A DNA stretch of 64,000 nucleotides from Oliverocinquevirus OLIVR5. Its lineage: Duplodnaviria; Heunggongvirae; Uroviricota; Caudoviricetes. Below are positions 14,846-43,780 of this stretch, piece after piece. The stretch covers positions 87,074 to 151,073 of IMG/VR virus record IMGVR_UViG_2974725113_000001; one strand, given 5' to 3'. Made by a program: the position numbers and the translations under genes. Positions within the stretch are counted from its first letter, which is position 1; each line of letters opens with the position of its first letter. The notes under the pieces are model-generated. The model saw only the letters and a program-made list of their open reading frames with translations. It was not told where the DNA came from and did no database searches.

Positions 14846-15291
14846 TGTCGAAGAGGGAAAACACGGAGAAACTCAACGAGACCCTCAGTTGGCTGAAGAA
14901 ACGAAGGAATATAGTCAAGGCGCTTCTTGACGGTGAGACGGTGGAGTTCTTTGATGATGAAGGGTATCACGTTTGTTTCGCAAGCATAGAGTCTGACGAA
15001 CTCATGAAGACTCTCCATCATTACCGATCTGTTTCGGTCGTTCAACCGGTCAATGCGGCCAATGACCTCATCTGGAAAGCATTGCCTGACGTTCGTTTCA
15101 TCGCGATGGATTTCAACAAGGATTGGTACGGCTACAAGAACAGCATCCATCCAGAAGATTTCGGCTGGATGTTGGACGATGTAAAAGAGCATCGTATTGT
15201 TCCAATTCCTGAAGAAATGTTTTGGCTCCTTCCCAAGTTCTCTGAAAACAAATGGAAGAAGTCTCTCCTTGTTCGTCCTTCGAATGTCTAA
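14845..15291 (+). CDS. hypothetical protein
   Basis: 148-aa ORF with ATGA overlap to the upstream gene. Confidence 0.45.
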   Translation: MSKRENTEKLNETLSWLKKRRNIVKALLDGETVEFFDDEGYHVCFASIESDELMKTLHHYRSVSVVQPVNAANDLIWKALPDVRFIAMDFNKDWYGYKNSIHPEDFGWMLDDVKEHRIVPIPEEMFWLLPKFSENKWKKSLLVRPSNV

Positions 15292-15316
15292 AATAACTCA
15301 CATCAATTCAATTCGT

Positions 15317-15345
15317 GAAAGCCCGGACTCATCCTCTGGGCTTTC
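15317..15345 (+). terminator. intrinsic terminator-like hairpin GAAAGCCC...GGGCTTTC
   Basis: 8-bp GC-rich stem followed by TTCTTGG. Confidence 0.45.
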
Positions 15346-15471
15346 TTGGTCTGTGGAAGAATCCGTTCGAAATTGTTGTTTAGAACGAACTTAGCTGTTT
15401 ACTTCCTCGGTCCTCTGGCTTAGAACCATTTAACCATCAACGCAAACCCAAAGAGGAAAAGAAAACGACTC

Positions 15472-16497
15472 ATGTCCGAAACAAACATTGTGAAAATTTT
15501 CGAACCTTGTGACGTTCGTCGTCCAAACTATTACCCGTTCGCAGAGGAACTTTCGGATAAAATCTTGAAGGGTTTCTGGAGCCATCTCCGCTTCACGTTC
15601 AAGCGCGACGTCAATGACTTCCATACGCTCTTCACTGACGAGGAACGAGACATCATCGTCCGTGACCTTTCAATGATCGGTCAGGTCGAGATCAACGTCA
15701 AGCGCTACTGGGCCAACATCGGCAATATCTTTCCTCATCCGTTTATCGAGGAAGCAGGCTTCATTTTCTCCCAGAATGAAGTCGTCCACAACCGCGCATA
15801 CGAGAAGCTTCTCCGTGTCTTGAACATGGAAGATATCTTCCAGGAAAACCTCAAGCTTCCGTTCGTTGCCGATCGCGTCAAGTACCTGAAGAAGCATACC
15901 GAGAAGACTTACGAAAACGATCGTCAGCAACAGCTTTATTCGCTGGTTCTGTTCACTCTCTTCGTCGAAAACGTTTCGCTGTTCTCGCAGTTCTACATTA
16001 TGCGATGGTTCAACCGTTGGCATCCAGAACACCAGAACAACAATCCTCTTTCGGAAACGGCTGTCCAAATCCAGTACACGCGAAACGAAGAGACTCTCCA
16101 TGCTCAGTTCGGCATCAAGCTCTTCAATACGGCTCGTGAACAATATCCTGAGCTGGTGACGGATGACTTCATCGAGAAAATTCGCAAGGAAGCCATGTCG
16201 GCTTACATCGCGGAATGTAACGTCCTCGATTGGATTTTGGATGGATACGATAAGCCGAAGCTTTCGTCTAAAATCCTCAAGTCCTTCATCCAGAAGCGCA
16301 TCGATGACTCGCTGATCCAGATCAACATCGATCCGCTTTTCACAGAGCACAAGTTCCGAGCTCTCGACTCTGAACACAAGTGGTTCTTTGACGAGGAAGT
16401 CTCCGAACTCGATGCAGATAATTTCGATGCCCACAACGACGCGTACACTCGCGACGACCGTGAATATGACATCGACACAGACATCATCTCATTCTGA
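15472..16497 (+). CDS. nrdB: ribonucleotide reductase small subunit NrdB
   Basis: Di-iron ligand pattern: E-x-x-H (NEVVHNRAY), FVENVSLFSQFY, EETLH; 341 aa; upstream RBS AAAGAGGAAAAG. Confidence 0.75.
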   Translation: MSETNIVKIFEPCDVRRPNYYPFAEELSDKILKGFWSHLRFTFKRDVNDFHTLFTDEERDIIVRDLSMIGQVEINVKRYWANIGNIFPHPFIEEAGFIFSQNEVVHNRAYEKLLRVLNMEDIFQENLKLPFVADRVKYLKKHTEKTYENDRQQQLYSLVLFTLFVENVSLFSQFYIMRWFNRWHPEHQNNNPLSETAVQIQYTRNEETLHAQFGIKLFNTAREQYPELVTDDFIEKIRKEAMSAYIAECNVLDWILDGYDKPKLSSKILKSFIQKRIDDSLIQINIDPLFTEHKFRALDSEHKWFFDEEVSELDADNFDAHNDAYTRDDREYDIDTDIISF

Positions 16498-16502
16498 AAC
16501 AA

Positions 16503-16518
16503 GGGAGCTTCGGCTCCC
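16503..16518 (+). other. C(UUCG)G tetraloop hairpin between nrdB and nrdA
   Basis: GGGAGC-TTCG-GCTCCC; no U-run follows, so more likely an RNA stability or processing element than a terminator. Confidence 0.4.
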
Positions 16519-16544
16519 ACTCTGAACATATCCCAAGGAATACA

Positions 16545-18365: not shown

Positions 18366-18375
18366 TTCCCCTAAA

Positions 18376-18398
18376 GGAGCAGGATTTATTCCTGCTCC
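18376..18398. terminator. bidirectional stem-loop GGAGCAGGA-tttat-TCCTGCTCC
   Basis: 9-bp perfect stem between convergent nrdA and the homing-endonuclease gene. Confidence 0.45.
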
Positions 18399-19141
18399 AC
18401 CTTTCTCCACCCTTTGAATTCGTCTCTTTTACCTTTAATTACGGCTGTTGCTCCAGCATATCCTAGACCGTATTTCTGACAAAATTCCCAATATCCTTCG
18501 ACTTCAACAATCTCTCCGGAAGGAGACATGATGAGTCCTTTCTTCCTGATAGCTTTCGACATTTTATCTCTAATTTCTGGATCATTCCATTGAGACTTAG
18601 CGTTGTCTTTTTGTCCCTTCGATCTTTCAGGATTGGCGTCGTAATTCGCTTTCTGTGATTTCGCTAGCTTTCTTTTCCTCTCAGGATTCGTAGCATAATC
18701 TTTCAAAGCCGCATCGCTAATATGCCTCGTCGTTCTTTCTCGATACCCGAGGTCTTCCCAATTTTTGATACTTCCTTCGCTTATTTTCCTTCTTGCAGAA
18801 GCTGAGTGTTTCCCTCCGGCGAAATTGAATTTTTCACCGTTGATTGTCATATTAATAAAGAGAGGAGATTTATGAGCGTCAAAGTGTTCTAGCATCGATT
18901 TCTCGTACGCGTAAGCGTCGTCTTCGATCTCGAAAGTCTTATGAATTTTGATCTTGAACAAATGAGGATTATTTCTCTTCTCCTCATTCCAAATTCTTTT
19001 ATACCTTCCAGAGCCTACAGACCCGCGATAACCTTTCTCGATTTTAGAGATGGTTCCTTTTCCGATATAAAATGGTGGGAGTTTGTCGCCGGTATAGATG
19101 GTAATATAAACACAATACGGTTTATTACATTTGCTGGACAT
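18386..19141 (-). CDS. GIY-YIG homing endonuclease (Seg-like) with NUMOD3-type repeats
   Basis: N-terminal YCVYITIYTG...FYIGKG (GIY-YIG); C-terminal repeated basic helix motifs (ARRKISEG, RKRKLAKSQKA, RSKGQKDNAK); paralogous to 40113..40811 and 41556..42161 (shared HFDAHKSxLFINM). Confidence 0.65.
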   Translation of the reverse strand: MSSKCNKPYCVYITIYTGDKLPPFYIGKGTISKIEKGYRGSVGSGRYKRIWNEEKRNNPHLFKIKIHKTFEIEDDAYAYEKSMLEHFDAHKSPLFINMTINGEKFNFAGGKHSASARRKISEGSIKNWEDLGYRERTTRHISDAALKDYATNPERKRKLAKSQKANYDANPERSKGQKDNAKSQWNDPEIRDKMSKAIRKKGLIMSPSGEIVEVEGYWEFCQKYGLGYAGATAVIKGKRDEFKGWRKVEQE

Positions 19142-19272
19142 CGTTAGGTTCCTTCCTAGTCTAGAGACCTCGGATATTGGCGTATCGCGGAGGTCACTTG
19201 ATATTTTAACTTTTCGATGTTTACGTCTTCATTCATTTGATGTATGTTTCAACTTTACTGAAAGGAAGTCTC

Positions 19273-19781: not shown

Positions 19782-19789
19782 CATTTGAA

Positions 19790-20572: not shown

Positions 20573-20875
20573 ATGATCACGAAACATCAGGTAGTTCTCT
20601 TCGACATTGATCCTCGTGGACTCAAGGTCACCGTCGAATGCACAACACGCCATAAAGGTATCAAGTTCCCTGGCTCCTCGATCAAATCTCTGATCGTCTC
20701 CGGATGGAACAAGGAAGTTTCTAATTCTCTCATTGGAGCTCTTCGGAAAGACATGGAAGGTTGCGATCAGCTCGCCATCGAAATGCACGACATCCACAAG
20801 CGTGAATTTCCCGAATATGACCAACTCGATTTCGATCACATCTTCTTCAAGATCGGCGAACGGATTGCGGCATGA
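20573..20875 (+). CDS. hypothetical protein
   Basis: In-frame ATG with RBS AAGGAA inside track ORF 20495..20875. Confidence 0.4.
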   Translation: MITKHQVVLFDIDPRGLKVTVECTTRHKGIKFPGSSIKSLIVSGWNKEVSNSLIGALRKDMEGCDQLAIEMHDIHKREFPEYDQLDFDHIFFKIGERIAA

Positions 20876-21108
20876 CCAGACTCGTACGCTTCGCTACTCC
20901 ACTCACTAAGGACACAGCCGATTTCTGTGAGCGAATGACAGAGTTCATGATCGGCTACAATCCGAAGCTTTCTGTTTACGACAAAGGACTCAACGGAAGT
21001 CATATCGAAATCATTTTCGAAGGTCCTCTCACCGATTGTGATATCAAGTATCTTCCGCTGTGTCTTGAATATATGGCGCCGGTGAAAGTGAGATTGCTCG
21101 AGGAGTAA
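20872..21108 (+). CDS. hypothetical small protein
   Basis: 78-aa ORF with ATGA overlap. Confidence 0.4.
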   Translation: MTRLVRFATPLTKDTADFCERMTEFMIGYNPKLSVYDKGLNGSHIEIIFEGPLTDCDIKYLPLCLEYMAPVKVRLLEE

Positions 21109-21140
21109 AATAACTCGTCCATCATTTCTTTTCCTTTCAA

Positions 21141-21170
21141 GGAGGAGAGAAGCTTCGGTTTCTCTCCTCT
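21141..21170 (+). terminator. long C(UUCG)G tetraloop hairpin
   Basis: GGAGGAGAGAAG-C-TTCG-G-TTTCTCTCCTC, about 13 bp including wobble pairs; followed by GAGGGGAT and a late-type motif. Confidence 0.5.
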
Positions 21171-21183
21171 GAGGGGATCGACT

Positions 21184-21191
21184 TAAAATAA
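21184..21191 (+). promoter_or_regulatory. late-promoter-like motif TAAAATAA, 6 nt upstream of an ATG (leaderless candidate)
   Basis: TTAAAATAAATCACTATG; no Shine-Dalgarno before the ATG at 21198; the same arrangement recurs at 37481. Confidence 0.4.
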
Positions 21192-21197
21192 ATCACT

Positions 21198-21659
21198 ATG
21201 GCACATACGAAGACTCTTAAGTCCAAATTCGAACCGAAGAATCTGACGAAATACATGGGAGATTCTACCAACATCATCACTCGATCGAGTTGGGAATACT
21301 TCTTCGCGTCCTGGTGTGATAATTCCCCTATCGTCGAACGATGGGCTTCTGAAGAAGTCGTCGTCCAATACATATCACCAAAGGACGGAAGAGAACACCG
21401 ATATTTCATCGATTTCTTTGTCATCTTCAAGGACGGAAAGAAAGTCCTTTTCGAAATCAAGCCTCACGCTCAAACGCTTCCTCCTGTCTGGAACGGAAAG
21501 AAGACTCGTAAAGCCGAGACTCGATATATGGAAGATATGGTCACGTATCAGATCAACCAAGCGAAGTGGGCATATGCTCGAAGATTCGCCGAAAGGAATG
21601 GACTCCATTTTGAAGTCTTCACAGAACACCATCTCCGGAAACTCGGTATGCCGATTTGA
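21198..21659 (+). CDS. hypothetical protein with a possible PD-(D/E)XK nuclease-like motif
   Basis: 153 aa; YFIDFFV...LFEIKP resembles a D...(E)xK catalytic core. Confidence 0.3.
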   Translation: MAHTKTLKSKFEPKNLTKYMGDSTNIITRSSWEYFFASWCDNSPIVERWASEEVVVQYISPKDGREHRYFIDFFVIFKDGKKVLFEIKPHAQTLPPVWNGKKTRKAETRYMEDMVTYQINQAKWAYARRFAERNGLHFEVFTEHHLRKLGMPI

Positions 21660-21667: not shown

Positions 21668-21675
21668 TAAAATAA
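21668..21675 (+). promoter_or_regulatory. late-promoter-like motif TAAAATAA upstream of the sheath gene
   Basis: GATAAAATAAATCGACT, about 46 nt before the ATG at 21722, with RBS AAAGGAAA in between. Confidence 0.4.
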
Positions 21676-21721: not shown

Positions 21722-24241
21722 ATGACTCTCGGTCTTTCCCCGGGTGTTTACCCGTCTGAACACGCAGTTGATACGATGGTTCCTGCAGCTCAGACTCGAG
21801 CAGGCGCTACTGTCGGCTGGTACAACTGGGGTCCTGTTCTTGAGCCGGTTCTTCTCGACGGTGAGAAAAGCCAGGTTGCAAACTTCGGTCTTCCCTCTGA
21901 CAAGAACTTTAAGGATTGGTTCGTAGCGAACGAATTCCTTTCCGAATCCGGTTCTCTCCGAGCTACCCGTATCGTTGGTGCTGGTGCACAAAACGCTATC
22001 GTCGGTGGTGCAGGCTCCGGACTCACTCTGGACGTCAATTCTATCAATGGTGAAGTAGTATCGATCGCCATCGCCGCAAAAGGCCAACTGTATAATGCTG
22101 GCGACATCGTAGAGATTTCTTCGGGATTGTCCGATGGTATCGCTTCTGAAGTCCGTGTTAACAGCGTGGATGAAGCAGGCGGTGCAGTCGATGTTTCATT
22201 GCTCTCTACCGGTACCGGCATCCCTACTGCTTCTGCGGTAGCAACCGTTTCTCGCACGAAATTCTTCGTGGGTACAGACTATCAGTTCGAAGAAGGCGAC
22301 GTTGAACTTCCGCCGATCCTGGCTCGCTATCCTGGCGATCTCGGTAACAACCTTGGAGTTTCAATTGTCCGAGCAGCTGAATATTACGGATCGTTCTTCG
22401 AAGACCGTTTTCCGGTCGCTCCTGCAGCGACTGTCGTCTACCTCGAAGACCCTACTGTCGTCGCCAATGGTTCTCTTACTTATACTGTATCTCCGACTGT
22501 CCTGGCTGCACCGGACCTTACAGTCACGTATGAGAATGCCACGATTGAAGAGGGTTCCCTCCCCGGACAATGGAGCGTTACTCGCGATTCTTCTGGCGAC
22601 ATCACTACTAACGAACTCGTTTACCTCACAGATGCTAATATCGTTGCTGCATCTGGTAAAAACTACCAGTTCACAATCACCAATGACTATAAGCTCGATC
22701 TTTTCTCAGCGGTGGTAAAACTCGGTACGAAGGAATATGCTCCTCGGTTCGACGGTATCGGTAATGTTCCGAAGGGCTTCTTCGACATCGACCCTGATAC
22801 TCTTCAGCTGACGATCGGCACGGAATTCTTCGCGGTTTCCGGCGACGGTCATACGGTTGAGTACGAAATCCTGACGACGAATCTTCCTCGTCCTGAGTCG
22901 ACGATCGTTGACGTTGACGGTGTAAGCTTCACGGTTGTAACGACCGAGCCAAACTCCGGCGAAGTCAAGATCGAAGTTCTCTCGACTGGTTTCAAGATCA
23001 AGTTCGAAGCTTCAGAAGCTCCGGCTATCGGTCTTCGTAATATCCAGGTTCGTTGGGACCTTCCGGTTGGCAACATCGATGTAATCCTCGGTCGTCCTCG
23101 CCGTGCAGACTCTCTGAAGCTGTTCGCGAACATGACCGAGTGCCATGCGATCGTTTTCGATTCGACTGGCAAGCTTTCGAATGAGAAGGATTCGGTTCTC
23201 GAGCCTTTCCAGTTCCTCTCGCTTGTTCCAGGGACCTTGAACGAAGATGGCACGTCGGCATACTTCGAGGACGCGATCAACGCTCGTTCGAGCTATATCC
23301 GAGTCACTCCTTCTCTGAAGCATTTCGGTGAATGGAAACTTGGTCGTGGTTCTGATGGTGCTGAACCGACCGATGCCGATTACCTGGCCGGCTACGAACT
23401 GTACCGTTCAAAGGAAGACTACGAAGCTACCTACGTCATCGACGTTGTGAAGTCTCGTACCGTCTCTATCCGTGTCATCGATCTGATCGAGAAGCGTGCC
23501 GACGGTGTTGCCTTCACGGGTGCTCCTCTGAACCTCACGTTCGAGAATCGTCCGAACAAGGCAAAGGATGTCATCGAGTACAAGCGCTCGCTGATGCCTT
23601 CGAGCTATGGTCACTTCAACCCGACCTGGATTCGCGTGTTCGACCGGTTCAACAACAAGTACCGTTGGATTCCATCTTCTGGTACTGATGCTGGTATGTA
23701 CGCCCGTACGCATAACTCGATCAATATGTGGACTGTTCCTGCAGGCTACAACCGTGGTCATTATCGTCGTTCGGAACGCGTTTCGTATCTCCCGAACGAG
23801 ACCGAACGCGATCAGCTGCATCAGAACGGTATCAACACCGTGGTTCGTGAAAAGGGTTCCGGCTTCGTCCTTCTGTCTTGGGTAACCATGCAGGAGAAGA
23901 AAGGTCTGTTCCAGGATATGAACGTTCGTTACCTCTCCATTTACTGCAAGATCAACATTGCTGAGATGCTGAAGTACATCATCGCCGAGATCAACGACGA
24001 AATCACTCGTTCGCAGGTCCGCAATGCGATCAACCCTTTCCTGGCACGTGTCAAGGCTGGACGTGGCGTTTACGATTATCGCACGCGTTGCGATGACAAG
24101 AACAACACTCCCGAAGTCGTCGATCAGAAAATCCTGAAGGTTGATGTTTACATGAAGCCTTCTCGCTTGATCGAAGGCATCGACCTTCGCCTGATCTACA
24201 CGAAGTCTGGCATCAGCTTCGAAGAAATCGTGATGGCCTAA
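21722..24241 (+). CDS. 18: tail sheath protein (T4 gp18 position)
   Basis: 839-aa ORF immediately upstream of the tube, portal, protease, scaffold and capsid genes in T4 order; preceded by a late-type motif. Confidence 0.5.
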   Translation: MTLGLSPGVYPSEHAVDTMVPAAQTRAGATVGWYNWGPVLEPVLLDGEKSQVANFGLPSDKNFKDWFVANEFLSESGSLRATRIVGAGAQNAIVGGAGSGLTLDVNSINGEVVSIAIAAKGQLYNAGDIVEISSGLSDGIASEVRVNSVDEAGGAVDVSLLSTGTGIPTASAVATVSRTKFFVGTDYQFEEGDVELPPILARYPGDLGNNLGVSIVRAAEYYGSFFEDRFPVAPAATVVYLEDPTVVANGSLTYTVSPTVLAAPDLTVTYENATIEEGSLPGQWSVTRDSSGDITTNELVYLTDANIVAASGKNYQFTITNDYKLDLFSAVVKLGTKEYAPRFDGIGNVPKGFFDIDPDTLQLTIGTEFFAVSGDGHTVEYEILTTNLPRPESTIVDVDGVSFTVVTTEPNSGEVKIEVLSTGFKIKFEASEAPAIGLRNIQVRWDLPVGNIDVILGRPRRADSLKLFANMTECHAIVFDSTGKLSNEKDSVLEPFQFLSLVPGTLNEDGTSAYFEDAINARSSYIRVTPSLKHFGEWKLGRGSDGAEPTDADYLAGYELYRSKEDYEATYVIDVVKSRTVSIRVIDLIEKRADGVAFTGAPLNLTFENRPNKAKDVIEYKRSLMPSSYGHFNPTWIRVFDRFNNKYRWIPSSGTDAGMYARTHNSINMWTVPAGYNRGHYRRSERVSYLPNETERDQLHQNGINTVVREKGSGFVLLSWVTMQEKKGLFQDMNVRYLSIYCKINIAEMLKYIIAEINDEITRSQVRNAINPFLARVKAGRGVYDYRTRCDDKNNTPEVVDQKILKVDVYMKPSRLIEGIDLRLIYTKSGISFEEIVMA

Positions 24242-24249: not shown

Positions 24250-24279
24250 GGGCTAGTGATCAAAATAGTTCACTAGCCC
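24250..24279 (+). terminator. hairpin GGGCTAGTGA-tcaaaatagt-TCACTAGCCC
   Basis: 10-bp perfect stem after the sheath gene; the loop carries CAAAATAGTTCACTAG, related to the late motif. Confidence 0.45.
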
Positions 24280-24313: not shown

Positions 24314-24937
24314 ATGGCAGAAACTCGTTTCACCGGCTTCGATATGGCAGGTTTCCAGTCCCAGCTTGGGAACGTGACTCAGCTCAACCAGTTCGCAGCC
24401 AACATCACTCTTCCTCCGTTCCTGGCATCTCTGTTCTCGGAGACCGACCAGTTCAACCGTAAAGTTGCTTTCTCGATCCGTGCGGCAAACCTTCCGCCTT
24501 CTCAGATCGGCGAAATTCCGGTTCCGTTCCGTGGCGGCCAGCGCTTCCGAATTCCTGGCGACCGTGACTATTCTGGCAACTGGGAAGTCACTCTCCGATA
24601 CGACATCAAGAACATCATCGGCAACGTAATGACTAAGTGGTCGGACTCGATGGTCGGTTGGGTCAATGCCGACTCTGTCGGTTCTGACGAAAACGTTCTC
24701 GATTACATGGGAGTTGGTGAAGTTCATCAGCTTTCCCGTAATGGTCGTATCATCACGTCTTGGAGTGTTGCTAACATCTGGCCTACGACTGTTGGTCAGC
24801 CTCAGTACGACTGGACCGCGGACAACGCTATTGTTGAAATCCCTGTCACGTTCGTAATGCAGCACATGGAAACTCCTGTGACCCGAAACAACTTGATCAT
24901 GGAAGAACAGCTTCTCTCCGGCGAACTGTTCCTCTAA
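24314..24937 (+). CDS. 19: tail tube protein (T4 gp19-like)
   Basis: C-terminal ANIWPTTVGQPQYDWTADNAIVEIPVTFV matches T4 gp19 GLWPTNVGELQLDWDSNNEIQTFEVTLAL; position directly after the sheath gene. Confidence 0.6.
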   Translation: MAETRFTGFDMAGFQSQLGNVTQLNQFAANITLPPFLASLFSETDQFNRKVAFSIRAANLPPSQIGEIPVPFRGGQRFRIPGDRDYSGNWEVTLRYDIKNIIGNVMTKWSDSMVGWVNADSVGSDENVLDYMGVGEVHQLSRNGRIITSWSVANIWPTTVGQPQYDWTADNAIVEIPVTFVMQHMETPVTRNNLIMEEQLLSGELFL

Positions 24938-24980
24938 GTTTCGAGCTATAGTGGTGTTGAGAGTAAATTTCTCTTTGAAA

Positions 24981-24988
24981 TAAAATAA
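24981..24988 (+). promoter_or_regulatory. late-promoter-like motif TAAAATAA upstream of the portal gene
   Basis: ATAAAATAACTCAACACC, about 33 nt before the ATG at 25022, with RBS GGAAGGAAA. Confidence 0.4.
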
Positions 24989-25021
24989 CTCAACACCATT
25001 AGCCGCTTGGAAGGAAATTAC

Positions 25022-26656
25022 ATGGAATTTTTCGGTTTTGAAATTAAACGCCGAGCCGACAAGATTAATGACATTCCTCTTCTCGACATAGAGCAGAATG
25101 GTTCATACGTCTCGACGAACGCCGCGGCCACGTCTTACGACTTCGACTTTATTTCCTCAACTGAAGTCGACCTTATCAACTCCTACCGTCGAATCGCACA
25201 TATCCCTGAAGTAGCTTCAGCCATTGACAAGATCATCAACGAAATGGTAATCTTGGACGATGAGAGGGATGTCGTCAAACTCGAGACCTCGAAACTCGTA
25301 GATCAAAAGGTCATCTCTGAAGAGTTGGCCGATACGATCAACGATGAGTTCGTCCAAGTCTGCCGTCTCCTCGACTTCAATAATACGGCTCATACGAAGG
25401 TCCGCGATTGGTACATCGACTCCAGGATCGTTTTCCAGAAGGTCATCAATCCTAGCAAGCCTAGCGATGGCGTCCAGAGAATGGTTCAGCTCGATCCTCG
25501 TAAGATCAAGCGGATCGAGATTGTCGACGATTTGGAAAATGGTCTTCTGAAGATCAAAGATACGTTCTTCGTCTACATGACGTCGCTGTTCAATTCGGAC
25601 ATGAACAACTTCAATACGCAGAACATTCAGATGTCGCTCAATGACTATGAACAGTTCAGACGTAACGTTTCATTCCGAGTTCATCCAGACACAATCACGT
25701 ACGTCGATTCGGGGCTGGTGGATCGCACCTCTGGTATCTCTTATGGAAACATGCACAGGGCTGTCAAGATCGCTAACCAGCTTGATCTGGTGGAAACTGC
25801 GCTGCTGATTTATCGTCTCTCGCGCTCTTCTGAACGCCGTGCGATCTACGTTGACTCTGGTAACTTGCCGCCTATCAAGGCTCGTGAACTTCTCGAAGCC
25901 ACGAAGGCAGACTTCCGTAACAAAGTCTACTATGACTCTGTCCGTGGTACCGTCGAAGACAAGGCTCGTATCATGTCGATGCAGGAAGATTACTTCATGC
26001 TTCGTCGTAACGGCAAGAGCGCCACTCAAATCGAGACGCTTCAAGCTGGGGAGAACCTTGGTCAGATCGAAGATGTTATTTACTTCCGTGAGAAACTCTT
26101 CACTGCGCTCTCCGTGCCACTCTCTCGTTTCCGTGAAGACGGAGGCGGACTCTTCTCGAATAAGTCAGAAATCTCCCGAAGCGAATTGGAATTCTCGGAG
26201 TTCGTCAAACGAAACCGTCTTCAATTCTCTCACGTCTTCCTCGACGTGCTTCGAACGAACCTCATCCTGAAACGGATCATTAAGCCTGACGACTGGCCTA
26301 GGATCAAGGATGGACTGAGGATCATCTTCAACCGCGATAACTACTTCGCTGAGTTGAAGGAAATCGAAATGCTTGAACGCCGACATGCAGCCCTTGATAC
26401 TGTTAAGGAATACATCGGTGTCTATTACTCGAACAAACACGTTCGGAACACCATCCTCCAGCAAACGCAGGAACAGATGGAAGAAATGGACAAGCAGATC
26501 AAGGAAGAAGGCAGCGAATACCTCGATCGGAACCAACCGTTCCCGAACGAAGATACCGCGAAAGCCCAGGAGATTATTGACGGTGAAGACGAGCCTATCG
26601 TCACACCTTATAAGAGGAATCCTCCCAAAATCGAAACAGGAAAGGATGAGGAATGA
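25022..26656 (+). CDS. 20: portal vertex protein (T4 gp20 position)
   Basis: 544 aa from the in-frame ATG with strong RBS (track start 25007 is TTG); follows the tube gene and precedes the protease and scaffold genes as in T4. Confidence 0.5.
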   Translation: MEFFGFEIKRRADKINDIPLLDIEQNGSYVSTNAAATSYDFDFISSTEVDLINSYRRIAHIPEVASAIDKIINEMVILDDERDVVKLETSKLVDQKVISEELADTINDEFVQVCRLLDFNNTAHTKVRDWYIDSRIVFQKVINPSKPSDGVQRMVQLDPRKIKRIEIVDDLENGLLKIKDTFFVYMTSLFNSDMNNFNTQNIQMSLNDYEQFRRNVSFRVHPDTITYVDSGLVDRTSGISYGNMHRAVKIANQLDLVETALLIYRLSRSSERRAIYVDSGNLPPIKARELLEATKADFRNKVYYDSVRGTVEDKARIMSMQEDYFMLRRNGKSATQIETLQAGENLGQIEDVIYFREKLFTALSVPLSRFREDGGGLFSNKSEISRSELEFSEFVKRNRLQFSHVFLDVLRTNLILKRIIKPDDWPRIKDGLRIIFNRDNYFAELKEIEMLERRHAALDTVKEYIGVYYSNKHVRNTILQQTQEQMEEMDKQIKEEGSEYLDRNQPFPNEDTAKAQEIIDGEDEPIVTPYKRNPPKIETGKDEE

Positions 26657-26844: not shown

Positions 26845-27500
26845 CCAAAATTCGTGCACGGCTCTTCTCCGAATCTACCGGCTCTTCGCAGCTCGAGTAT
26901 ACCGCGGAGTCTATCGACGGCAAGAAGAAGTATGTCATTGAAGGCATCTTCGCTCAAGCCGAAAAGCCGAACCGGAACAAGCGTCGTTATCCTCGCGAAG
27001 TTCTTTTCGAGACGGTCGAAAACTACATCGATCAGAAAGTCTCTAAGAAATTGGCATATGGCGAACTCGACCATCCGCCTGAACGTGTCCAAGTAAAAAT
27101 GTCTGATATGTCGCACCTCATTACTGAACTTTGGTTTGAAGGCGACAACGTCATGGGTAAAGCGACGATTGCCGATACTCCGAAAGGTCGTATCGCAATG
27201 GCTGCTATGGACATCGGCGGTCAAATTTCCGTTTCCACTCGTGGTCTCGGTCAGTCTAAACCTGAACGTTCCACAGGTCTGGAAGTAATGGAAATGTTTC
27301 ATATGACGGCGATCGACATCGTCTCTTTCCCGTCCGGCATTGACTGCTTCCCTCGCGGGTTCAATGAGTCTTTGGAATTCCTCGTTGAGGAAGGTCATAT
27401 GACAAAAGTTGAAGCTCATAAAATAATTCGAGAAACAGATACGAGAGTTTCAGCTGCTGAATTCTCGAAAGCTCTGAAGCACATCATGAAAGGACTCTGA
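26841..27500 (+). CDS. 21: prohead core protease (T4 gp21-like)
   Basis: 219 aa; motif PNRNKRRYPREVL resembles the gp21-family NGRxYP; immediately upstream of the scaffold gene. Confidence 0.45.
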   Translation: MTKIRARLFSESTGSSQLEYTAESIDGKKKYVIEGIFAQAEKPNRNKRRYPREVLFETVENYIDQKVSKKLAYGELDHPPERVQVKMSDMSHLITELWFEGDNVMGKATIADTPKGRIAMAAMDIGGQISVSTRGLGQSKPERSTGLEVMEMFHMTAIDIVSFPSGIDCFPRGFNESLEFLVEEGHMTKVEAHKIIRETDTRVSAAEFSKALKHIMKGL

Positions 27501-29005: not shown

Positions 29006-29047
29006 GGAGTCAGAAACGAGCGAAAATAAACGCAAATTTCTGACTCC
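29006..29047 (+). terminator. stem-loop GGAGTCAGAAA...TTTCTGACTCC with large loop
   Basis: 11-bp stem with about 20-nt loop after the scaffold gene; a weak terminator at best. Confidence 0.25.
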
Positions 29048-29048
29048 T

Positions 29049-29056
29049 TAAAATAA
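29049..29056 (+). promoter_or_regulatory. late-promoter-like motif TAAAATAA upstream of the major capsid gene
   Basis: TTAAAATAAAACGAAC, about 40 nt before the ATG at 29096, with RBS GGAGAAAAG. Confidence 0.4.
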
Positions 29057-34188: not shown

Positions 34189-34228
34189 TGAATGCTCCGT
34201 TCGTTTATTCTTATGTAGTCTATTTTGA

Positions 34229-37036: not shown

Positions 37037-37404
37037 TCTCCGAATACGGTGTAAAGGTCATTGATAAATGAGACTCGACCGTCGATTTCTTCATGACTTT
37101 CGTTAATGAGCATAACGAAGTTCCGGAATTTCCTGGCATCCTTTTCTTCGCTGATGCCGAAGATCGAGGCGGAATCGATGAAGAATTGGTTTGACGCCGT
37201 TGTGCTTATTCGACGATTCTCGTCTCGAGCGGTTTCGAATTCAGCTTTCTCGAGGTTGTAAGCCTTGAGCGCTTCGGCGTAAACGATGACGTCTTCAGGA
37301 GTATGATTAGCCTTAAGACTCGGTTTCGTCGGTCTCGAAATTTCCTTCAAGACCGGAGAGTATTTACCTTTGTCTACGTTGATATCGAAATAGAAAATGT
37401 TCAT
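37033..37404 (-). CDS. hypothetical protein
   Basis: 123-aa ORF with ATGA overlap to the HNH gene; AGGAG RBS. Confidence 0.4.
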   Translation of the reverse strand: MNIFYFDINVDKGKYSPVLKEISRPTKPSLKANHTPEDVIVYAEALKAYNLEKAEFETARDENRRISTTASNQFFIDSASIFGISEEKDARKFRNFVMLINESHEEIDGRVSFINDLYTVFGE

Positions 37405-37430
37405 TTTAGTCTCCTATTGAATTTGGATTT

Positions 37431-37459
37431 CTTATATTCAAGGTCTAAGTGATTGTAAA
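37431..37459 (-). promoter_or_regulatory. early-type promoter on minus strand (TTTACA-N17-TATAAG)
   Basis: Minus-strand sequence TTTACAATCACTTAGACCTTGAATATAAG, upstream of the gene starting at 37404. Confidence 0.45.
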
Positions 37460-37480
37460 TAGAAAAGTGCCATCTCCTCT

Positions 37481-37488
37481 TAAAATAG
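37481..37488 (+). promoter_or_regulatory. late-promoter-like motif TAAAATAG, 6 nt upstream of an ATG (leaderless candidate)
   Basis: TTAAAATAGTTCACTATG, same architecture as 21184; no Shine-Dalgarno. Confidence 0.4.
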
Positions 37489-37494
37489 TTCACT

Positions 37495-38841
37495 ATGAGC
37501 GAAATCCAGTTTTACGAGAAAAGAAAGCATGATCCTGACAAGGCTCTCAATTTCCCTGGGGAATACGAGCTTGAGTCGGCTGAGGTCGCTGGCGAAGACT
37601 TTCTTGCAAAGGTCGGCTCCATTGTGATCTTCGAAGATATGAATCTCCCGTACGTCACGGGGGAAATCAACGCGATCGACACGCAGAACATGGCCTCTCT
37701 TAAGCCTTTTATAGGCGGCGAGAAGGTAAAGTTCACAATCCGAGACTGCTACCGTCAAAAACTCGAGTTCGATTTTGTCCTGATTCGAGTTTCTGACCGT
37801 CGACCGATTTCATTGAGCTCCACTGCTTACACGATCAAATTCGCGTCGAAGTCCTACATCAATTCGAAGGCGAAGAAAATTTCGAAAGCCTACGCCAAGA
37901 TGAAAACTGAGGCGGCTTTCGCAGATGTCTGTATGAATTACATGAACATCCCGGCAGAAAAGCTTCAATGGGTCGAGACCGAAGCTCCTATCTCTTGCAT
38001 CATTCCAAACTGGCGTCCTGGCCATTCTGTCAAGTGGTTGGCGTCTCGATCAGTAGCATCTCGTGCAGAGTTCGCGAAGTCTCCATATACCGTCTTCGAA
38101 GAGAAGGATGGGAAGATGAATTTCCTTCCTCTCGATTTCCTTTATAACGAAGAGACAAACATCGAACGAGGAGAAATCCTTCTGAAGTTCGGCCGTCATA
38201 CGATGGATGACAATGCTTCTATCGCTCTTCATGAAAGGATGGGTGTCCATCAGCTTTCGATGGAGAGATTCGAGATCGTTAAGACTACCGACTTTGGTGA
38301 GAACCTCGAGCACGGCATGTATAATAATGCTGTCCAGGAAATTGATCTGTTCGCTCGTGATACGGAAATTCGAGAATACTCCTATAAGGAAGACTTCGAA
38401 GATTCGCAGCACCTGAACAAATATCCTTTCCTTCGACCGAACGGAATCGAAGCTCAGAATGATATGTCCTACTGGCAGACCGTGCCTAAGAACGACGCTC
38501 TCTTCTCTGACATGGACTCACGCGCCATGATCAACCCGTCTCTCTACTCTTTTATTTCGAAATGGCAGCAGACAGAGCAGATGGTTGTGAGAGGACTTCT
38601 TCCAGGATCGTTCGAGCTCAGAGTCGGTCAGAAGTATCGACTGAACATTCCTGCGTTCAGTTCGGCTACGGTCACCGGAGTCCAGTCAATAGATGGTTAC
38701 TTCTCTGGCAATTACATCGTCGAAGCGATCAAGCACGAATTCACACCAAACAACAAGTATTTCGCAACCGTCCAACTCTTCACGGATTCGGTCTCTCAGG
38801 AGATTAAACCTATCCTGGAAGTTGAAGGAAGAACAGGCTAA
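37495..38841 (+). CDS. 27: baseplate hub protein (T4 gp27-like)
   Basis: C-terminal NYIVEAIKHEFTPNNKYFATVQLFTD matches T4 gp27 [24 protein letters not shown]; immediately upstream of the gp5-like spike gene; 448 aa. Confidence 0.5.
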   Translation: MSEIQFYEKRKHDPDKALNFPGEYELESAEVAGEDFLAKVGSIVIFEDMNLPYVTGEINAIDTQNMASLKPFIGGEKVKFTIRDCYRQKLEFDFVLIRVSDRRPISLSSTAYTIKFASKSYINSKAKKISKAYAKMKTEAAFADVCMNYMNIPAEKLQWVETEAPISCIIPNWRPGHSVKWLASRSVASRAEFAKSPYTVFEEKDGKMNFLPLDFLYNEETNIERGEILLKFGRHTMDDNASIALHERMGVHQLSMERFEIVKTTDFGENLEHGMYNNAVQEIDLFARDTEIREYSYKEDFEDSQHLNKYPFLRPNGIEAQNDMSYWQTVPKNDALFSDMDSRAMINPSLYSFISKWQQTEQMVVRGLLPGSFELRVGQKYRLNIPAFSSATVTGVQSIDGYFSGNYIVEAIKHEFTPNNKYFATVQLFTDSVSQEIKPILEVEGRTG

Positions 38842-38843
38842 AG

Positions 38844-39758: not shown

Positions 39759-39807
39759 TCAAAATAGATAAACAGACATAGACGTCTGGCTATCAAGGAA
39801 TAGGACA

Positions 39808-40811: not shown

Positions 40812-41563
40812 GCACGGTGAAACCCATCTCGAGAGACCAATTGATCAAGACCGTCTTGGAAAGGATGGGTCACCCTGACATTCATATTCCGGTGACTGGA
40901 CCTCAGCTCCAGCACCTTGCTCAGGAAGCGATCACGAGGTTTGTCGAATTCCACTACCAGTCTACGACGAAAGCCTACCTGGATTTCGAAATCACTGAGG
41001 AGCTGAAGGCCTCTAAGACCATCAAGATGCCTAACTTCGTTGTCGGCGTCGACACGATCCTTTCGTACAAAATCAACGACTTCCTTTATCGGACGGACGC
41101 GTACGGAGCTTCGATGTGGTCGATGCTTTCAAAGAACCATTTCGGTCAGTCAACATCTCTTTCGAAGGTCGACATTTATCTCTACGAACGAGAGCTATCT
41201 GAATGGGAAGCTATCTTCCAGACGATGCCGAAATTCGTCTTCTCGAAAACCAACCATGAGCTCGTCATCGAAGGCGGCTCGTATCGAATGAACCTCGGCT
41301 CTAAGCTCCTCGTGCGCTGTTCGATTTCGCTTGAAGACTTCGAAGGAGAGTTCTTCTCGAACTCTTGGCTTATCCGTTACATGGAAGCTCTCGTCCGCAT
41401 TAAGATGGGTGAAAACCTTTCGAACTGGTCAGACTTAGGCCTTCCTGGCGGCGTGAAGTACAACGGTCCTCAAATCCTTGACAGAGGCGAAAAGATGAAG
41501 GCTGAGCTCGAAGAAGAAATGCTCGATATGGCCTACTTCGAATCGGGGATAGTCATTGGTTAA
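40808..41563 (+). CDS. hypothetical structural protein (baseplate region)
   Basis: 251-aa ORF flanked on both sides by GIY-YIG endonuclease genes. Confidence 0.4.
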   Translation: MSTVKPISRDQLIKTVLERMGHPDIHIPVTGPQLQHLAQEAITRFVEFHYQSTTKAYLDFEITEELKASKTIKMPNFVVGVDTILSYKINDFLYRTDAYGASMWSMLSKNHFGQSTSLSKVDIYLYERELSEWEAIFQTMPKFVFSKTNHELVIEGGSYRMNLGSKLLVRCSISLEDFEGEFFSNSWLIRYMEALVRIKMGENLSNWSDLGLPGGVKYNGPQILDRGEKMKAELEEEMLDMAYFESGIVIG

Positions 41564-42161
41564 AGATTGGTGCACATACTTAATTGTGTATAACGGACGA
41601 GAGTTTCCTCCGTTTTACATAGGGTATTCTTCTAAAGTCAAAATCGAAAATGGTTACAGAGGATCAGTTTCTTCTAAAAAGTATAAGGCTCTTTGGAAGA
41701 AAGAACTTTCCTCTAATCCTCATCTTTTCAGGATTAAAATCCTGAAGTCCTTTGACACTAAGGAAGAAGCCATCAAATACGAAACCGAAATCCAGACGCA
41801 TTTTGCCGTTCATAAATCCAAACTTTTCGTGAATATGGCTATCGCCGGAGAAAAGTTCATGGGTCCTGAAATTATGGACCCTAAGGTGAAAGCGAAAATC
41901 TGCCGTTTCGGTAAGAAACATTCTGAAGAAACTAAAAGGAAAATCGGAGAAGCTCATAAAGGCCTAAAACAAAGCGAAGAGGCCAAAGCGAAGATTTCCG
42001 TTTCGAATAAAGGTAAGAAACATTCTGTAGAGACTAGGGTAAAAATGTCTAAGTCTCACACCGGATCGAAGAGGCCTCCAGATATCCGTAAAAGAATGTC
42101 GGAGAGCGCAAAATTGGCTTGGGAGAAAAGGAAAAATGGCAAACAAACTATTCTCACATAG
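41556..42161 (+). CDS. GIY-YIG homing endonuclease (Seg-like), paralog 3
   Basis: CTYLIVYNGREFPPFYIGYSS; HFAVHKSKLFVNMAIAGEKF; repeats (KHSEETKRKIGEAHKG, KHSVETRVKMSKSHTG). Confidence 0.65.
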   Translation: MVKDWCTYLIVYNGREFPPFYIGYSSKVKIENGYRGSVSSKKYKALWKKELSSNPHLFRIKILKSFDTKEEAIKYETEIQTHFAVHKSKLFVNMAIAGEKFMGPEIMDPKVKAKICRFGKKHSEETKRKIGEAHKGLKQSEEAKAKISVSNKGKKHSVETRVKMSKSHTGSKRPPDIRKRMSESAKLAWEKRKNGKQTILT

Positions 42162-42834
42162 TCTGTTCTCGAATGACGCGAAGTTCATTCAGTCGATCCA
42201 TGACCGTTTCATTTTCGACAACGGGATTGATGCTGAATATCTGCCGCGGAAAATCATGAATCGTGATCCTATCCTGAATGAGCCTCTATCGTCGGTTTTC
42301 GATGATGCCATTTCTCTGGACATGTACATTCATAATACCGAAATGTTCTTCGGTGGAAACCAGACTCTCGGCATGAACGGTTTCAGCTTCTCTTTTGGAG
42401 CTGCTTCTGTTCTCGTCTCTCGAAACGAGTTCATCGCCAAGGTGAAGATCGATTCTCCGCATGAAGGCGATCTGATTTTCCTCCATCCAAACAAGATGCT
42501 TTTCGAAATCATCAACGTGAACTCGAAGGACGCTATCATTTCGGGCGGTCGTCTGTTCACTTTCGAAATCTTCATCAAGCCTTACAGCTGGGGTGAAGGA
42601 TATGCCTCGTTCGATAATCTCAATGACGGAAACACCTCGTCTCCTGCTATTGACATCATCAAGGATATGGTCAACAAGGTCGACGAATCTAAGTGGGACG
42701 ATGGCTGTAAGGACGACCAAACATCCATGCTCGATATGAAGGAGAACCTCGGTCTCCAATCGCAGAACGCCGATTTCGAATGTGACAGCGCAGACAAGAT
42801 ACACCGCGATGTGAAGTCGTTCGGATTTAGCTAA
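42136..42834 (+). CDS. hypothetical protein (baseplate/structural region)
   Basis: 232-aa ORF overlapping the 3' end of the endonuclease gene by 26 nt. Confidence 0.4.
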   Translation: MANKLFSHSLFSNDAKFIQSIHDRFIFDNGIDAEYLPRKIMNRDPILNEPLSSVFDDAISLDMYIHNTEMFFGGNQTLGMNGFSFSFGAASVLVSRNEFIAKVKIDSPHEGDLIFLHPNKMLFEIINVNSKDAIISGGRLFTFEIFIKPYSWGEGYASFDNLNDGNTSSPAIDIIKDMVNKVDESKWDDGCKDDQTSMLDMKENLGLQSQNADFECDSADKIHRDVKSFGFS

Positions 42835-42845
42835 GGAGTAATTCA

Positions 42846-43685
42846 TTGAGAAGCGTATTCTTCTCCCACGCCCACGTGCGGACCGCCATCGGTCTATTTG
42901 GAGCAGTCTTCAATCGAATTTACATTGCTAGGTTCGATCGGACTGGCACGAAGATCGACAAGCTCTGTCACGTTCCAATTCTCTACGTTCCGAGGTCCAG
43001 GATTTTCACGAAGGACTGGATTTCGAACGAAGAGTCCAACAAGGACATCTACGAAAAATTCTATGGCGTCTATCCTCGAATCTGCTTCGAGTTTGAAGGC
43101 ATGTCATATCGTCAAGCTGTCCAGCTCCAGAAGACTGCCAAGATTCGAGTCGGAAGCCAGTTCGGATTTACACCGACGCCATACACTCTCGGATTCTCTA
43201 TGCACATCGTGGCTCGAGATCAGAACACCGCACTCCAGGTCGTAGAGCAAATCATCCCTCGCTTCAAACCGTCTATGACTATAGAATGCGATCATGAAGT
43301 TTTCGACAACATCAACAAGGACGTGAGGATCAATCTGATCGATATCTCTCTTGAGGACAATGCGACGGATTATGACGAGAAACGTATTGTCGTCTACACC
43401 TTGAACTTCGAGATGGAAATCGACTTCTACGGTTACGTCAAAGGAGCAGATATCGAAATTGCCAAGACCGGCGAATGTGGTATCGACGTCGAAATCCCGA
43501 TCATGGAACTTTGCCCTGACGACGGTGGCGGAAACGAACTCGGCGAGCAGATCGAAAAGATCATCGTCGACTATCACGACCTCAAGGTTTGGCCGAAGTT
43601 CTGGCCTACTCTCGAACGCGATATCATCACAAAAGATGGAGTGGAGACCGTTCAGGCGACACATCCTATTCCATTGGAAGACTAA
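42846..43685 (+). CDS. hypothetical protein (baseplate/structural region)
   Basis: 279-aa ORF. Confidence 0.45.
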   Translation: MRSVFFSHAHVRTAIGLFGAVFNRIYIARFDRTGTKIDKLCHVPILYVPRSRIFTKDWISNEESNKDIYEKFYGVYPRICFEFEGMSYRQAVQLQKTAKIRVGSQFGFTPTPYTLGFSMHIVARDQNTALQVVEQIIPRFKPSMTIECDHEVFDNINKDVRINLIDISLEDNATDYDEKRIVVYTLNFEMEIDFYGYVKGADIEIAKTGECGIDVEIPIMELCPDDGGGNELGEQIEKIIVDYHDLKVWPKFWPTLERDIITKDGVETVQATHPIPLED

Positions 43686-43687
43686 AT

Positions 43688-43725
43688 ATGATAATAGAGG
43701 TCAGATTCGAAAGTCTCTGGCCTCT
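43688..43725 (+). terminator. stem-loop AGAGGTCAGA...TCTCTGGCCTCTTTT
   Basis: Imperfect stem followed by a T-run, after the stop of 42846..43685. Confidence 0.4.
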
Positions 43726-43780
43726 TTTAGGGTTAAGTTTCAATGACTTGTAAAATAAATAACTCGACGTCATTTTTCGT

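Follow-up and report, generated by a model that had tools for sequence, protein, structure and literature searches.

The late promoters of bacteriophage T4 are the closest described counterparts of the element analyzed here. A T4 late promoter (TATAAATA, positions −13 to −6) consists of a single A/T-only box without a −35 element, and it is used by gp55 together with gp33 and the gp45 clamp. Other T4-related phages vary this consensus at two or three 5′ positions and keep the AAATA core, as in the (a/g)CTAAATA of Aeh1 (PMC2988020). For the family that includes phages phiM9, P10VF and OLIVR5, published lineage descriptions mention that a gp55 homologue is present, that gp33 is missing and that some members have an RpoE-like extracytoplasmic function (ECF) sigma factor, proposed as a possible late factor; they define no late-promoter sequence. 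With gp33 lacking and the role of the ECF sigma factor unsettled, the late machinery of this family looks incomplete, and the literature does not settle which of the two, gp55 or the ECF sigma factor, drives the late genes. Leaderless mRNAs are a second relevant system, the lambda cI mRNA made from PRM being one of them. In Sinorhizobium meliloti, 171 leaderless mRNAs have been mapped, all of which begin with AUG (PMC3616915). Here we analyzed the last 64,000 bases (the window) of the genome of Agrobacterium phage OLIVR5 (record MT234342.1, 151,073 bp; Pootjesviridae, Heverleevirus; a T4-superfamily lineage), in which a seven-base box recurs upstream of the virion genes. Window coordinates equal record coordinates minus 87,073.

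On comparative grounds, we consider it quite probable that this box, (T/C)AA(A/T)ATA and mostly TAAAATA(A/G), serves as the late-promoter element in OLIVR5 and in Pootjesviridae generally, and that it works by the following mechanism. Like the T4 late promoter TATAAATA, the box would act as a lone −10-like element without a −35 partner. Its non-template strand would be read by the host RNA polymerase carrying gp83c, a gp55-like late sigma factor, and transcription would start at a purine 5 nt downstream of the box. A box 17–48 nt from the ATG would give a leadered late mRNA with a Shine-Dalgarno (SD) sequence, and a box 4–7 nt from an SD-less ATG would give a leaderless (5′-AUG) or 3-nt-leader (5′-RYY-AUG) late transcript, which would be translated by the leaderless pathway. 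The promoter function of the box is the part of this proposal in which we have the most confidence, and we regard it as very likely.

We used the whole 151-kb OLIVR5 genome with its 259 annotated genes for genome-wide tests, and took orthologous regions (partial loci) from six phages belonging to five genera other than that of OLIVR5. These are ORM_20, with 76% DNA identity to OLIVR5, and phiM9, P10VF, RHph_Y68 (Y68), RL38J1 and Atu_ph04, whose gp4 proteins share 54–60% identity with that of OLIVR5. Boxes were searched for with the pattern (T/C)AA(A/T)ATA. In OLIVR5, the box or one of its listed variants stands in the right orientation before the first gene of all 10 structural clusters that were delimited, namely the tail fibre gene; gp8-VrlC-fibre; uvsW-terS-gp25-gp6-gp7; TerL-gp5; gp2-gp54-gp26-gp51; gp4/sheath/tube/portal/gp22/capsid; the gp3 cluster; the gp27-like gene with a gp5-like lysozyme; the neck cluster; and gp48-gp53. 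It also occurs upstream of uvsW and of an EndoVII-like gene. Boxes in the window with an assigned gene at an ordinary leader distance, together with one internal site, are the following.

9736–9742, minus strand: TAAAATA(G), 22 nt before the gp2 ATG, heading gp2-gp54-gp26-gp51
9747–9753, plus strand: box for gene 9781, forming a back-to-back pair with the minus-strand gp2 box
12461–12467, minus strand: box before the minus-strand cluster starting at 12455; an ordinary leadered promoter if the start is M9 (12431)
21668–21674, plus strand: sheath box, ATG at 21722, leader with GAAAGGA; an orthologous box lies 35–48 nt upstream in 7 of 7 phages
24261–24267, plus strand: CAAAATA, likely tube-gene promoter, in the loop of a 10-bp hairpin (24250–24279) after the sheath gene; ATG at 24314
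24981–24987, plus strand: portal box, ATG at 25022, within the loop of a 13-bp hairpin (24949–25001; fold z −5.7), on its unpaired 3′ side
27419–27425, plus strand: box inside the gp21 protease gene, 76–77 nt before gp22; candidate internal late promoter
29049–29055, plus strand: major capsid box, ATG at 29096, directly after a hairpin (29006–29047)
34221–34227, minus strand: CAAAATA(G) of the gp3 cluster, 32 nt before gene 34188–33466; orthologous sites in four relatives
39760–39766, plus strand: CAAAATA(G) of the neck cluster, before gene 39808, which heads the gp13/gp14/gp15 cluster
44808–44814, plus strand: box heading the gp48/gp53 cluster, upstream of gene 44857, with a 12-bp hairpin whose loop contains it; in ORM_20, a stem of 14 bp brackets the orthologous position
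50723–50729, plus strand: CAAAATA(A), 19 nt before a RuvC/EndoVII-like gene (50749)

The first-pass annotation of the window had described the motif TAAAATAA at 30–55 nt upstream of the sheath, portal and major capsid genes, and the distances to their ATGs, counted from the box's first base, are indeed 54, 41 and 47 nt. The positions it gave were right with one exception, 43750, which should be 43751, and it overlooked the copy at 27419. That copy lies within gp21, where the box is found at identical codons (Lys-Ile as AAA-ATA) in all six phages with data. In OLIVR5, ATA makes up 4.7% of Ile codons and AAAATA 2.8% of Lys-Ile dicodons; the retention of such a rare dicodon indicates that selection acts on the DNA word at this site. 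The gp2/9781 pair is kept in ORM_20 with equal spacing inside a divergent 67-nt gap, which must hold a promoter. At the neck site, the orthologous sequence is TAAAATA in phiM9, P10VF and Y68 and a weaker GAAATA variant in ORM_20. Comparison with the related phages, which had been proposed as a check, thus located the box at orthologous positions in ORM_20, phiM9, P10VF, Y68, RL38J1 and Atu_ph04.

The box is far more frequent than composition predicts. TAAAATAA occurs eight times in the window, always on the plus strand (15289, 21106, 21184, 21668, 24981, 27419, 29049 and 43751), and dinucleotide-preserving shuffles gave 1.22 ± 1.10 copies with a largest value of 4. Genome-wide, 14 of the 24 copies of TAAAATA fall in the non-coding fraction, which is 4.9% of the 151-kb genome, and 500 composition-matched shuffles of the non-coding DNA gave 3.8 ± 2.0 copies with a maximum of 11. 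A blind 7-mer scan of 112 upstream regions returned three signals only: GTTTACA, which is the early −35 box; AAGGAAA, which is the Shine-Dalgarno sequence; and TAAAATA, with 13 occurrences against 2.1 expected. TAAAATA appears 32 times in the two main structural blocks of seven phages, where each permutation of the same composition appears at most 10 times; the commonest of these permutations are overlapping shifts of the box itself, and TAAAATA is three times commoner than any of them. The structural blocks contain 43 sense-strand copies of [TC]AAAATA and no antisense copy, a strand bias that is partly compositional because the other permutations are also sense-biased (68 versus 8).

These counts bear on the simplest alternative, in which the box is a common A/T-rich word that often overlaps TAA stops and the SD-less starts are annotation errors. 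Several facts fit such a view: the non-coding DNA has 39% GC versus 47% overall, two copies (15289 and 21106) do overlap a TAA stop, the copy at 43751 is without conservation, and an apparent leaderless case at 12455 is better explained by a downstream start. However, neither the composition-matched shuffles nor the same-composition permutations reproduce the counts, six genera have retained the box at orthologous sites, and the rare dicodon is kept inside gp21. The N-termini of gp4 and the gp27-like protein are, moreover, conserved from residue 1, with no alternative start bearing an SD. The shuffles, permutations, orthologous conservation and gp21 dicodon already largely refute chance, which we regard as extremely improbable.

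An alignment on the box revealed the signature expected of a start site. The box is held at 64 orthologous sites in six phages, sites that are not statistically independent, and the flanks around it diverge. The variants are CAAAATA, TAATATA and (T/C/A)TAAATA. The search pattern itself fixes box positions 3, 5, 6 and 7, and 60 of the 64 sites have A at position 4, giving the core AAATA. There is no −35 element, as at each of the 15 positions upstream the commonest base is found in at most 28 of the 64 sites, and a conserved TG extension is likewise lacking. Positions +2 to +4 after the box are pyrimidine-rich, with G at +4 at a single site, and +5 is a purine in 51 of the 64 sites (p = 3e-7) and in 33 of 43 in a subset of four deep lineages. 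In the window alone, all 21 box copies have a purine at +5. The distance between box and ATG falls into separate classes: 4–7 nt at 17 sites, 17–48 nt at 42 sites and 8–16 nt at none (P about 2e-6 if uniform), the remaining five sites all being the internal gp22 site at 76–77 nt. The purine at +5 and the empty 8–16 nt interval are what a promoter predicts, with a start about 5 nt past the box and a leader that is either absent or long enough for an SD. Leaders of the 17–48 nt class, to which most virion genes belong, do carry a normal Shine-Dalgarno sequence.

The short-spacing class was anticipated by the first-pass annotation, which had noted two boxes adjoining an ATG without a Shine-Dalgarno sequence and suggested that both genes are leaderless. 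The features concerned, with a further candidate, are listed here.

21184–21190, plus strand: TAAAATA box of gp4, 7 nt before the ATG; predicted start A21195, giving 5′-ACUAUG
21198–21659, plus strand: gp4 head-completion gene (PHROG 218, E = 4e-54, residues 5–150); no SD; predicted near-leaderless mRNA
37481–37487, plus strand: box of the gp27-like gene, 7 nt before the ATG; predicted start A37492, giving ACU-AUG
37495–38841, plus strand: gp27-like tail/hub gene (PHROG 350 "tail protein", E = 5e-66); no SD; predicted near-leaderless mRNA
62332–62338, plus strand: CAAAATA box 4 nt before the SD-less ATG (62343) of a MobE homing-endonuclease gene; possibly a further leaderless candidate

The sequences are exactly as described. 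Positions 21183–21200 read TTAAAATAAATCACTATG and positions 37480–37497 read TTAAAATAGTTCACTATG, with six bases between the 8-mer and the ATG, and the 17-mers at 21183 and 37480 share the pattern TTAAAATA(A/G)(A/T)TCACTATG. We computed SD pairing energies for OLIVR5 and judged the upstream sequences of the relatives by eye. In OLIVR5, the pairing energies are +0.1 kcal/mol for gp4, +0.8 kcal/mol for the gp27-like gene and +2.9 kcal/mol for TerL against a genome median of −6.1 kcal/mol, and all genes with a box 4–7 nt from the start have −2.0 kcal/mol or weaker. Spacing between box and ATG at gp4 is 7 nt in OLIVR5, ORM_20 and Atu_ph04 and 4 nt in phiM9, P10VF, Y68 and RL38J1, and no Shine-Dalgarno sequence precedes gp4 in any of these seven phages. 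At the gp27-like gene, the spacing is 5–7 nt in all six phages examined, and no SD is visible in the orthologues. The start codon is ATG at all 17 sites of the 4–7 nt class. With 7-nt spacing, R-Y-Y-ATG is found at 9 of 9 sites; with 4-nt spacing, transcription is predicted to begin on the A of the ATG itself, which would give an exact 5′-AUG.

Downstream ATGs with conventional Shine-Dalgarno sequences, named beforehand as an outcome that would speak against leaderless starts, were looked for at both genes, and no alternative SD start was found. The gp4 proteins align from residue 1 across the family, with invariant M1, K8, N15, K18, Y19, G21 and D22, and the N-terminus M-x-x-I-x-x-Y-E of the gp27-like protein is conserved from residue 1, where the tblastn alignments begin in all family members. 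With the conserved N-termini, the lack of an SD and a box 4–7 nt from the ATG, the leaderless or near-leaderless reading of genes 21198 and 37495 holds, with a predicted 3-nt leader in OLIVR5. We therefore think it rather likely that the mRNAs translated into gp4 and the gp27-like protein have a 3-nt leader or none. The same design is found in a lineage-specific manner at TerL (OLIVR5 and ORM_20), gp25 (phiM9) and uvsW (P10VF and Y68). TerL was considered as a family-wide leaderless gene and rejected, since its leader is 24 nt long in phiM9, and in P10VF and Atu_ph04 the gene lacks the box and is preceded by an SD. Gene 12099–12455 (minus strand), with a box 5 nt before its annotated ATG, was likewise rejected as a third leaderless case: its PHROG match starts at residue 9, the ORM_20 orthologue starts at the M9 equivalent with an SD, and the real start is probably M9 (12431).

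Three things underlie the label of the gp27-like protein: its match to PHROG 350 ("tail protein"), the synteny of its gene with the gp5-like lysozyme, and a figure legend in the phiM9 paper; the protein has no match in PDB, Pfam or NCBIfam. Annotation slips occur at these SD-less genes: Prodigal missed gp4 of ORM_20, calling a reverse-strand ORF (open reading frame) instead, and the gp27-like gene of P10VF is annotated 17 codons short. The box without an SD accounts for gene finders missing or mis-starting these genes.

Alternatively, the box could act in RNA. It would then be an A/U-rich site at which RNase E or a phage endoribonuclease processes the transcript, or an A/U-rich translation enhancer that ribosomal protein S1 binds and that replaces the SD, with gp4 and the gp27-like protein translated from longer transcripts. 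The A/U-rich stretch before the SD-less AUG of both genes suits an enhancer, many boxes lie in or just after strong hairpins, which is a typical context of processing sites, and cleavage adjoining the AUG would also yield a leaderless RNA. An enhancer is unneeded, however, at the 42 sites where the box lies upstream of a normal SD, 17–48 nt from the ATG. The divergent gaps before gp2/9781 and the gp27-like gene receive no transcription from upstream on the same strand that could be processed, and nothing in them is conserved apart from the box; in the latter gap of OLIVR5, the only other element is an early promoter on the minus strand (37430–37468), back to back with the box. The pyrimidine-then-purine pattern at fixed +4/+5 and the empty 8–16 nt spacing are again predictions for a transcription start, and the core AAATA matches the late box of the T4 family. 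We consider an RNA-level role improbable, and return to the late promoter.

The search for a gp55 homologue elsewhere in the genome, which had been suggested as a check, led to gp83c (record 43320–44069, minus strand). It adjoins the gp46/gp47 homologues, as T4 gene 55 does, and matches PHROG 234 "late sigma transcription factor" with E = 2e-19. A profile of gp83c and five relatives matches T4 gp55 (PDB 7D7C, 7d7c_F) with E = 9e-6 over residues 9–124. A gp45 clamp is annotated in OLIVR5 as well. In T4, A-12 is inserted into a gp55 pocket, where Tyr97 stacks on the flipped base, and Thr99 belongs to the pocket for A-8 (PMC7892883). According to the profile alignment, the family keeps Thr99 and replaces Tyr97 by Leu, His95 by Phe and Asn13 by Gly. 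When nTAAAATA is aligned with TATAAATA, the bases at −12 and −11 are changed and those from −10 to −6 are kept, so the changed bases may loosely match the changed pocket, as far as a distant alignment can indicate. We consider it likely that gp55 reads the box. The annotated gp83c has 249 residues against 185–215 in the relatives; its N-terminus is over-extended, with no ATG at the homologous start, and it contains a 21-residue internal partial duplication (VPEAELPPVD/IPEEKIPPLPD).

Some other factor might read the promoter instead, namely host sigma-70 recognizing a −10 element with the help of an activator, the RpoE-like ECF sigma factor of phiM9 and P10VF, or an unrecognised phage protein. 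The gp55 pocket residues differ from those of T4, TAAAAT matches TATAAT at five of six positions, and a simple scan pairs two boxes with weak −35 hexamers, but the 64 sites show neither a conserved −35 nor a TG extension, and the sigma-70-type promoters of this genome form a separate and well-defined GTTTACA family. The ECF sigma gene lies just upstream of gp4 in phiM9, P10VF, Y68 and RL38J1, and Johnson et al. proposed its product as a possible late factor. ECF promoters, however, require a −35 box of the GGAAC type. In OLIVR5, neither tblastn nor a profile of four phage ECF sigmas against all six-frame ORFs detected an ECF sigma factor, yet this phage has the same boxes at the same sites as the carriers of the gene, which argues against the ECF sigma factor as the reader, and we rejected it as the late factor. 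We identified gp55 homologues in OLIVR5 and ORM_20, and published work describes them for phiM9, P10VF and Atu_ph04 (gp119 in the last). A reader other than gp55 thus appears unlikely. For the question left open in the published discussion, the conservation of the box across six genera and the same boxes in OLIVR5 without a detected ECF sigma factor suggest gp55 as the likely driver.

Most of the features of T4 late promoters that can be tested in silico are present, the exceptions being the exact consensus and gp33, absent according to the literature. Boxes precede virion genes on either strand, as in T4, where the back-to-back pair of genes 4 and 53 resembles gp2/9781 of OLIVR5; both systems have a single A/T-only box with no −35 and the core AAATA, and OLIVR5 encodes a gp55 homologue and the gp45 clamp. 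The differences lie in the box itself, (T/C)AAAATA versus TATAAATA, with T/C rather than A at −12 and A rather than T at −11, and in the predicted start, which is one base closer to the box. The exact T4 box has a single copy in the 151-kb genome and none in non-coding DNA, so that OLIVR5 departs from the exact consensus. A likeness to the T4 late promoter had been noted earlier; the shared core AAATA bears it out, but the proposed one-base permutation fits worse than an alignment of nTAAAATA with TATAAATA. An A at the position of the T4 T-11 is not among the variants named in a review of T4 late transcription (PMC2988020).

T4 gene 4 has a 26-nt leader with AAGGAG, which indicates that the leaderless design is not ancestral to all T4-like phages. 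When we searched IMG/VR with gp4, we retrieved phiM9 itself and otherwise more distant homologues (at most 53% identity) with CTAAATA, ATAAATA or TATAAATA boxes. These contigs presumably represent other T4-like lineages, and we used them as a contrast and not as family members. The late consensus of the uncultivated T4-like contigs is CTAAATA or ATAAATA, likewise an in silico prediction. Among 79 such contigs, three have a same-strand late box 5–6 nt from the gp4 ATG. In most of them, the same-strand box of gp4 (CTAAATA or TATAAATA) lies about 30 nt upstream, while the reverse complement of a second box adjoins the gp4 ATG, and no Shine-Dalgarno sequence is visible.

The OLIVR5 candidates share with leaderless mRNAs such as lambda cI and those of S. 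meliloti the ATG start and the lack of an SD, as well as a promoter element one helical half-turn from the start codon, and the host clade translates such mRNAs (PMC3616915). They differ from known leaderless mRNAs in that the design is tied to a phage late promoter and to conserved virion genes and is predicted from sequence, and in that half of the cases would have a fixed 3-nt leader (R-Y-Y) instead of a 5′-terminal AUG. In the accessible literature, we found no description of leaderless late genes in T4-like phages, of transcription in Pootjesviridae, or of a TAAAATA/CAAAATA late-promoter consensus for phiM9-like phages. This kind of promoter is already known from T4, and the consensus variant and the conserved leaderless design appear to be new. 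If the prediction is true, these would be the first family-wide leaderless late mRNAs in T4-like phages, as far as the literature shows. The box could also serve to correct annotations and to build late-expression cassettes in biocontrol phages of Agrobacterium and Rhizobium.

The leaderless design points to a simple coupling of translation to promoter choice. One tentative and rather doubtful extension is a timing lock, in which only transcripts that start at the late promoter could be translated into gp4, the gp27-like protein or, depending on the lineage, TerL, gp25 and uvsW. In read-through RNA from early or middle promoters further upstream, the AUG would be internal and without an SD, and in several relatives it also lies in the loop of a conserved hairpin; no protein would be made from such RNA. 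Whether a gene can be translated would then depend on where its transcript starts, a post-transcriptional fail-safe for late gene expression in a lineage that lost gp33.

Several points weigh against the proposed mechanism. Besides the non-independence of the 64 sites and the partly compositional strand bias, no gene evidently follows the copies at 4181, 15289 and 43751 and at record positions 4176, 19988 and 55494. Two positions of the box depart from TATAAATA, and on the better alignment it loses the A at −12 that T4 gp55 holds in its pocket, and with Tyr97 replaced by Leu, recognition must differ in detail. No gp33 was reported for phiM9 and P10VF by Johnson et al. (PMC4621102), OLIVR5 itself not having been searched for it, and the gp55 C-termini in the OLIVR5 clade are charged rather than hydrophobic, which together leave clamp-coupled activation unproven. 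Lastly, a 3-nt leader is not strictly leaderless and may be translated less well.

Many boxes are associated with inverted repeats. Every intergenic gap of the gp4-to-capsid block contains a strong hairpin (z −3.4 to −5.7), with the box just after the hairpin at gp4 and the capsid gene and in the loop at the tube and portal genes. A perfect bracketing stem of at least 6 bp is present at 15 of the 64 sites (shuffle mean 3.4 bp), and the box-in-loop layout at the portal gene is also seen in ORM_20, phiM9 and Atu_ph04. The tube site, where the sequence at 24261 is CAAAATAGTTCACTAG and the copy is CAAAATAG, had been described as a copy within the loop of the sheath-gene terminator hairpin. The box does lie in the loop, but TTCACTAG makes up the 3′ arm, and the hairpin has no T-run. 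It folds with −20.5 kcal/mol (z −3.4) and has a bracketing stem of 10 bp (p < 0.005). The orthologous site has a weaker GAAATA variant in the hairpin loop in ORM_20 and a box after the hairpin in the other genera. Most simply, the 24261 copy is the tube-gene promoter.

In the relatives, the box and ATG of leaderless-type genes often lie in a loop with codons 1–4 as the 3′ arm, a repeat that is absent at these genes in OLIVR5; the stems of P10VF (CCTG/CAGG) and Y68 (CCAG/CTGG) differ by a compensatory pair. A terminator scan found a T-run after none of the box-adjacent hairpins. The simplest reading of the box-hairpin unit is a compact terminator-plus-promoter module, and a role of the hairpins in silencing read-through RNA is possible. 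The early promoters of phage N4 are DNA hairpins recognised by its virion RNA polymerase, and about a quarter of the boxes here resemble them in lying in the loop of an inverted repeat. However, most boxes, including those of gp4 and the gp27-like gene in OLIVR5, have no repeat, the loops are long (10–27 nt) and the polymerase system is unrelated.

Three copies that the first-pass annotation had also listed are not supported as gene promoters, two overlapping a stop codon next to a hairpin and one being absent from ORM_20.

15289–15295, plus strand: overlaps the TAA stop of gene 14845–15291, followed by a hairpin; 176 nt before nrdB
21106–21112, plus strand: overlaps the TAA stop of gene 20872–21108, followed by a highly conserved 20-bp hairpin
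43751–43757, plus strand: after gp15; not conserved in ORM_20 and probably due to chance

ORM_20 also has TAAAATAA upstream of nrdB. The 15289 and 21106 copies may drive short late RNAs or be fortuitous. The copy at 21106, which is conserved in ORM_20, and that at 21184 are TAAAATAA boxes flanking an element of about 65 nt (21113–21183) with the 20-bp hairpin, which is about 95% identical between OLIVR5 and ORM_20 (genome average 76%) and could be a strong terminator or a small late RNA. Rfam returned no family match in the 64-kb window, including this element. A further copy, TAAAATAG at 4181 on the plus strand, has a purine at +5 and lies antisense within the minus-strand gene for a ssDNA-binding protein (3468–4808); no plus-strand gene follows for 620 nt, and the copy may reflect an antisense late transcript or chance. 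Close to 43751, a sigma-70-type promoter is conserved in ORM_20 where the box is not. This promoter (GTATTTAC-N17-TATAAT, plus strand, region 43775–44347) has no annotated plus-strand gene for 550 nt, and a small gene or RNA may have escaped annotation in this region, whose small annotated minus-strand ORFs seem questionable. Two tiny annotated ORFs that overlap late boxes, 37401–37493 and 43666–43773 (both minus strand; 30 and 35 residues), are without support and likely spurious.

Early genes carry promoters of another family, (T)GTTTACA-N17/18-TAnnnT, and not the late box; at least 17 copies lie upstream of early genes, examples being the following.

15390–15425: early promoter
37430–37468, minus strand: early promoter
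43775–43815: early promoter
48600–48640: early promoter
Record 7150–7250: early promoter

The sequence TGTAAATAGAAAAGT found beside the late box (37454 and record 69132) was considered as a second promoter part and rejected, as it is the reverse complement of an ATTTACA-N17-TATAAG early promoter that fires in the opposite direction. More than 10 similar copies exist genome-wide. The annotated starts at 19240 (glutaredoxin), 56390 and record 15607 are only about 20 nt past an early −35 box and are probably wrong, since they would precede the transcription start. Two homing-endonuclease genes are preceded by a late box, 18386–19141 (minus strand) at 60 nt from the ATG and 62343–62807 (plus strand) at 4 nt, which suggests that both mobile genes are expressed late. 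G is absent from the late box, and C occurs in it at most once. OLIVR5 also encodes a dCMP hydroxymethylase (54288–55052), a UDP-galactopyranose mutase and a UDP-glucose 4-epimerase (the latter two at record 10–1125 and 49549–50541), and these three enzymes together suggest sugar-modified cytosine in the phage DNA.

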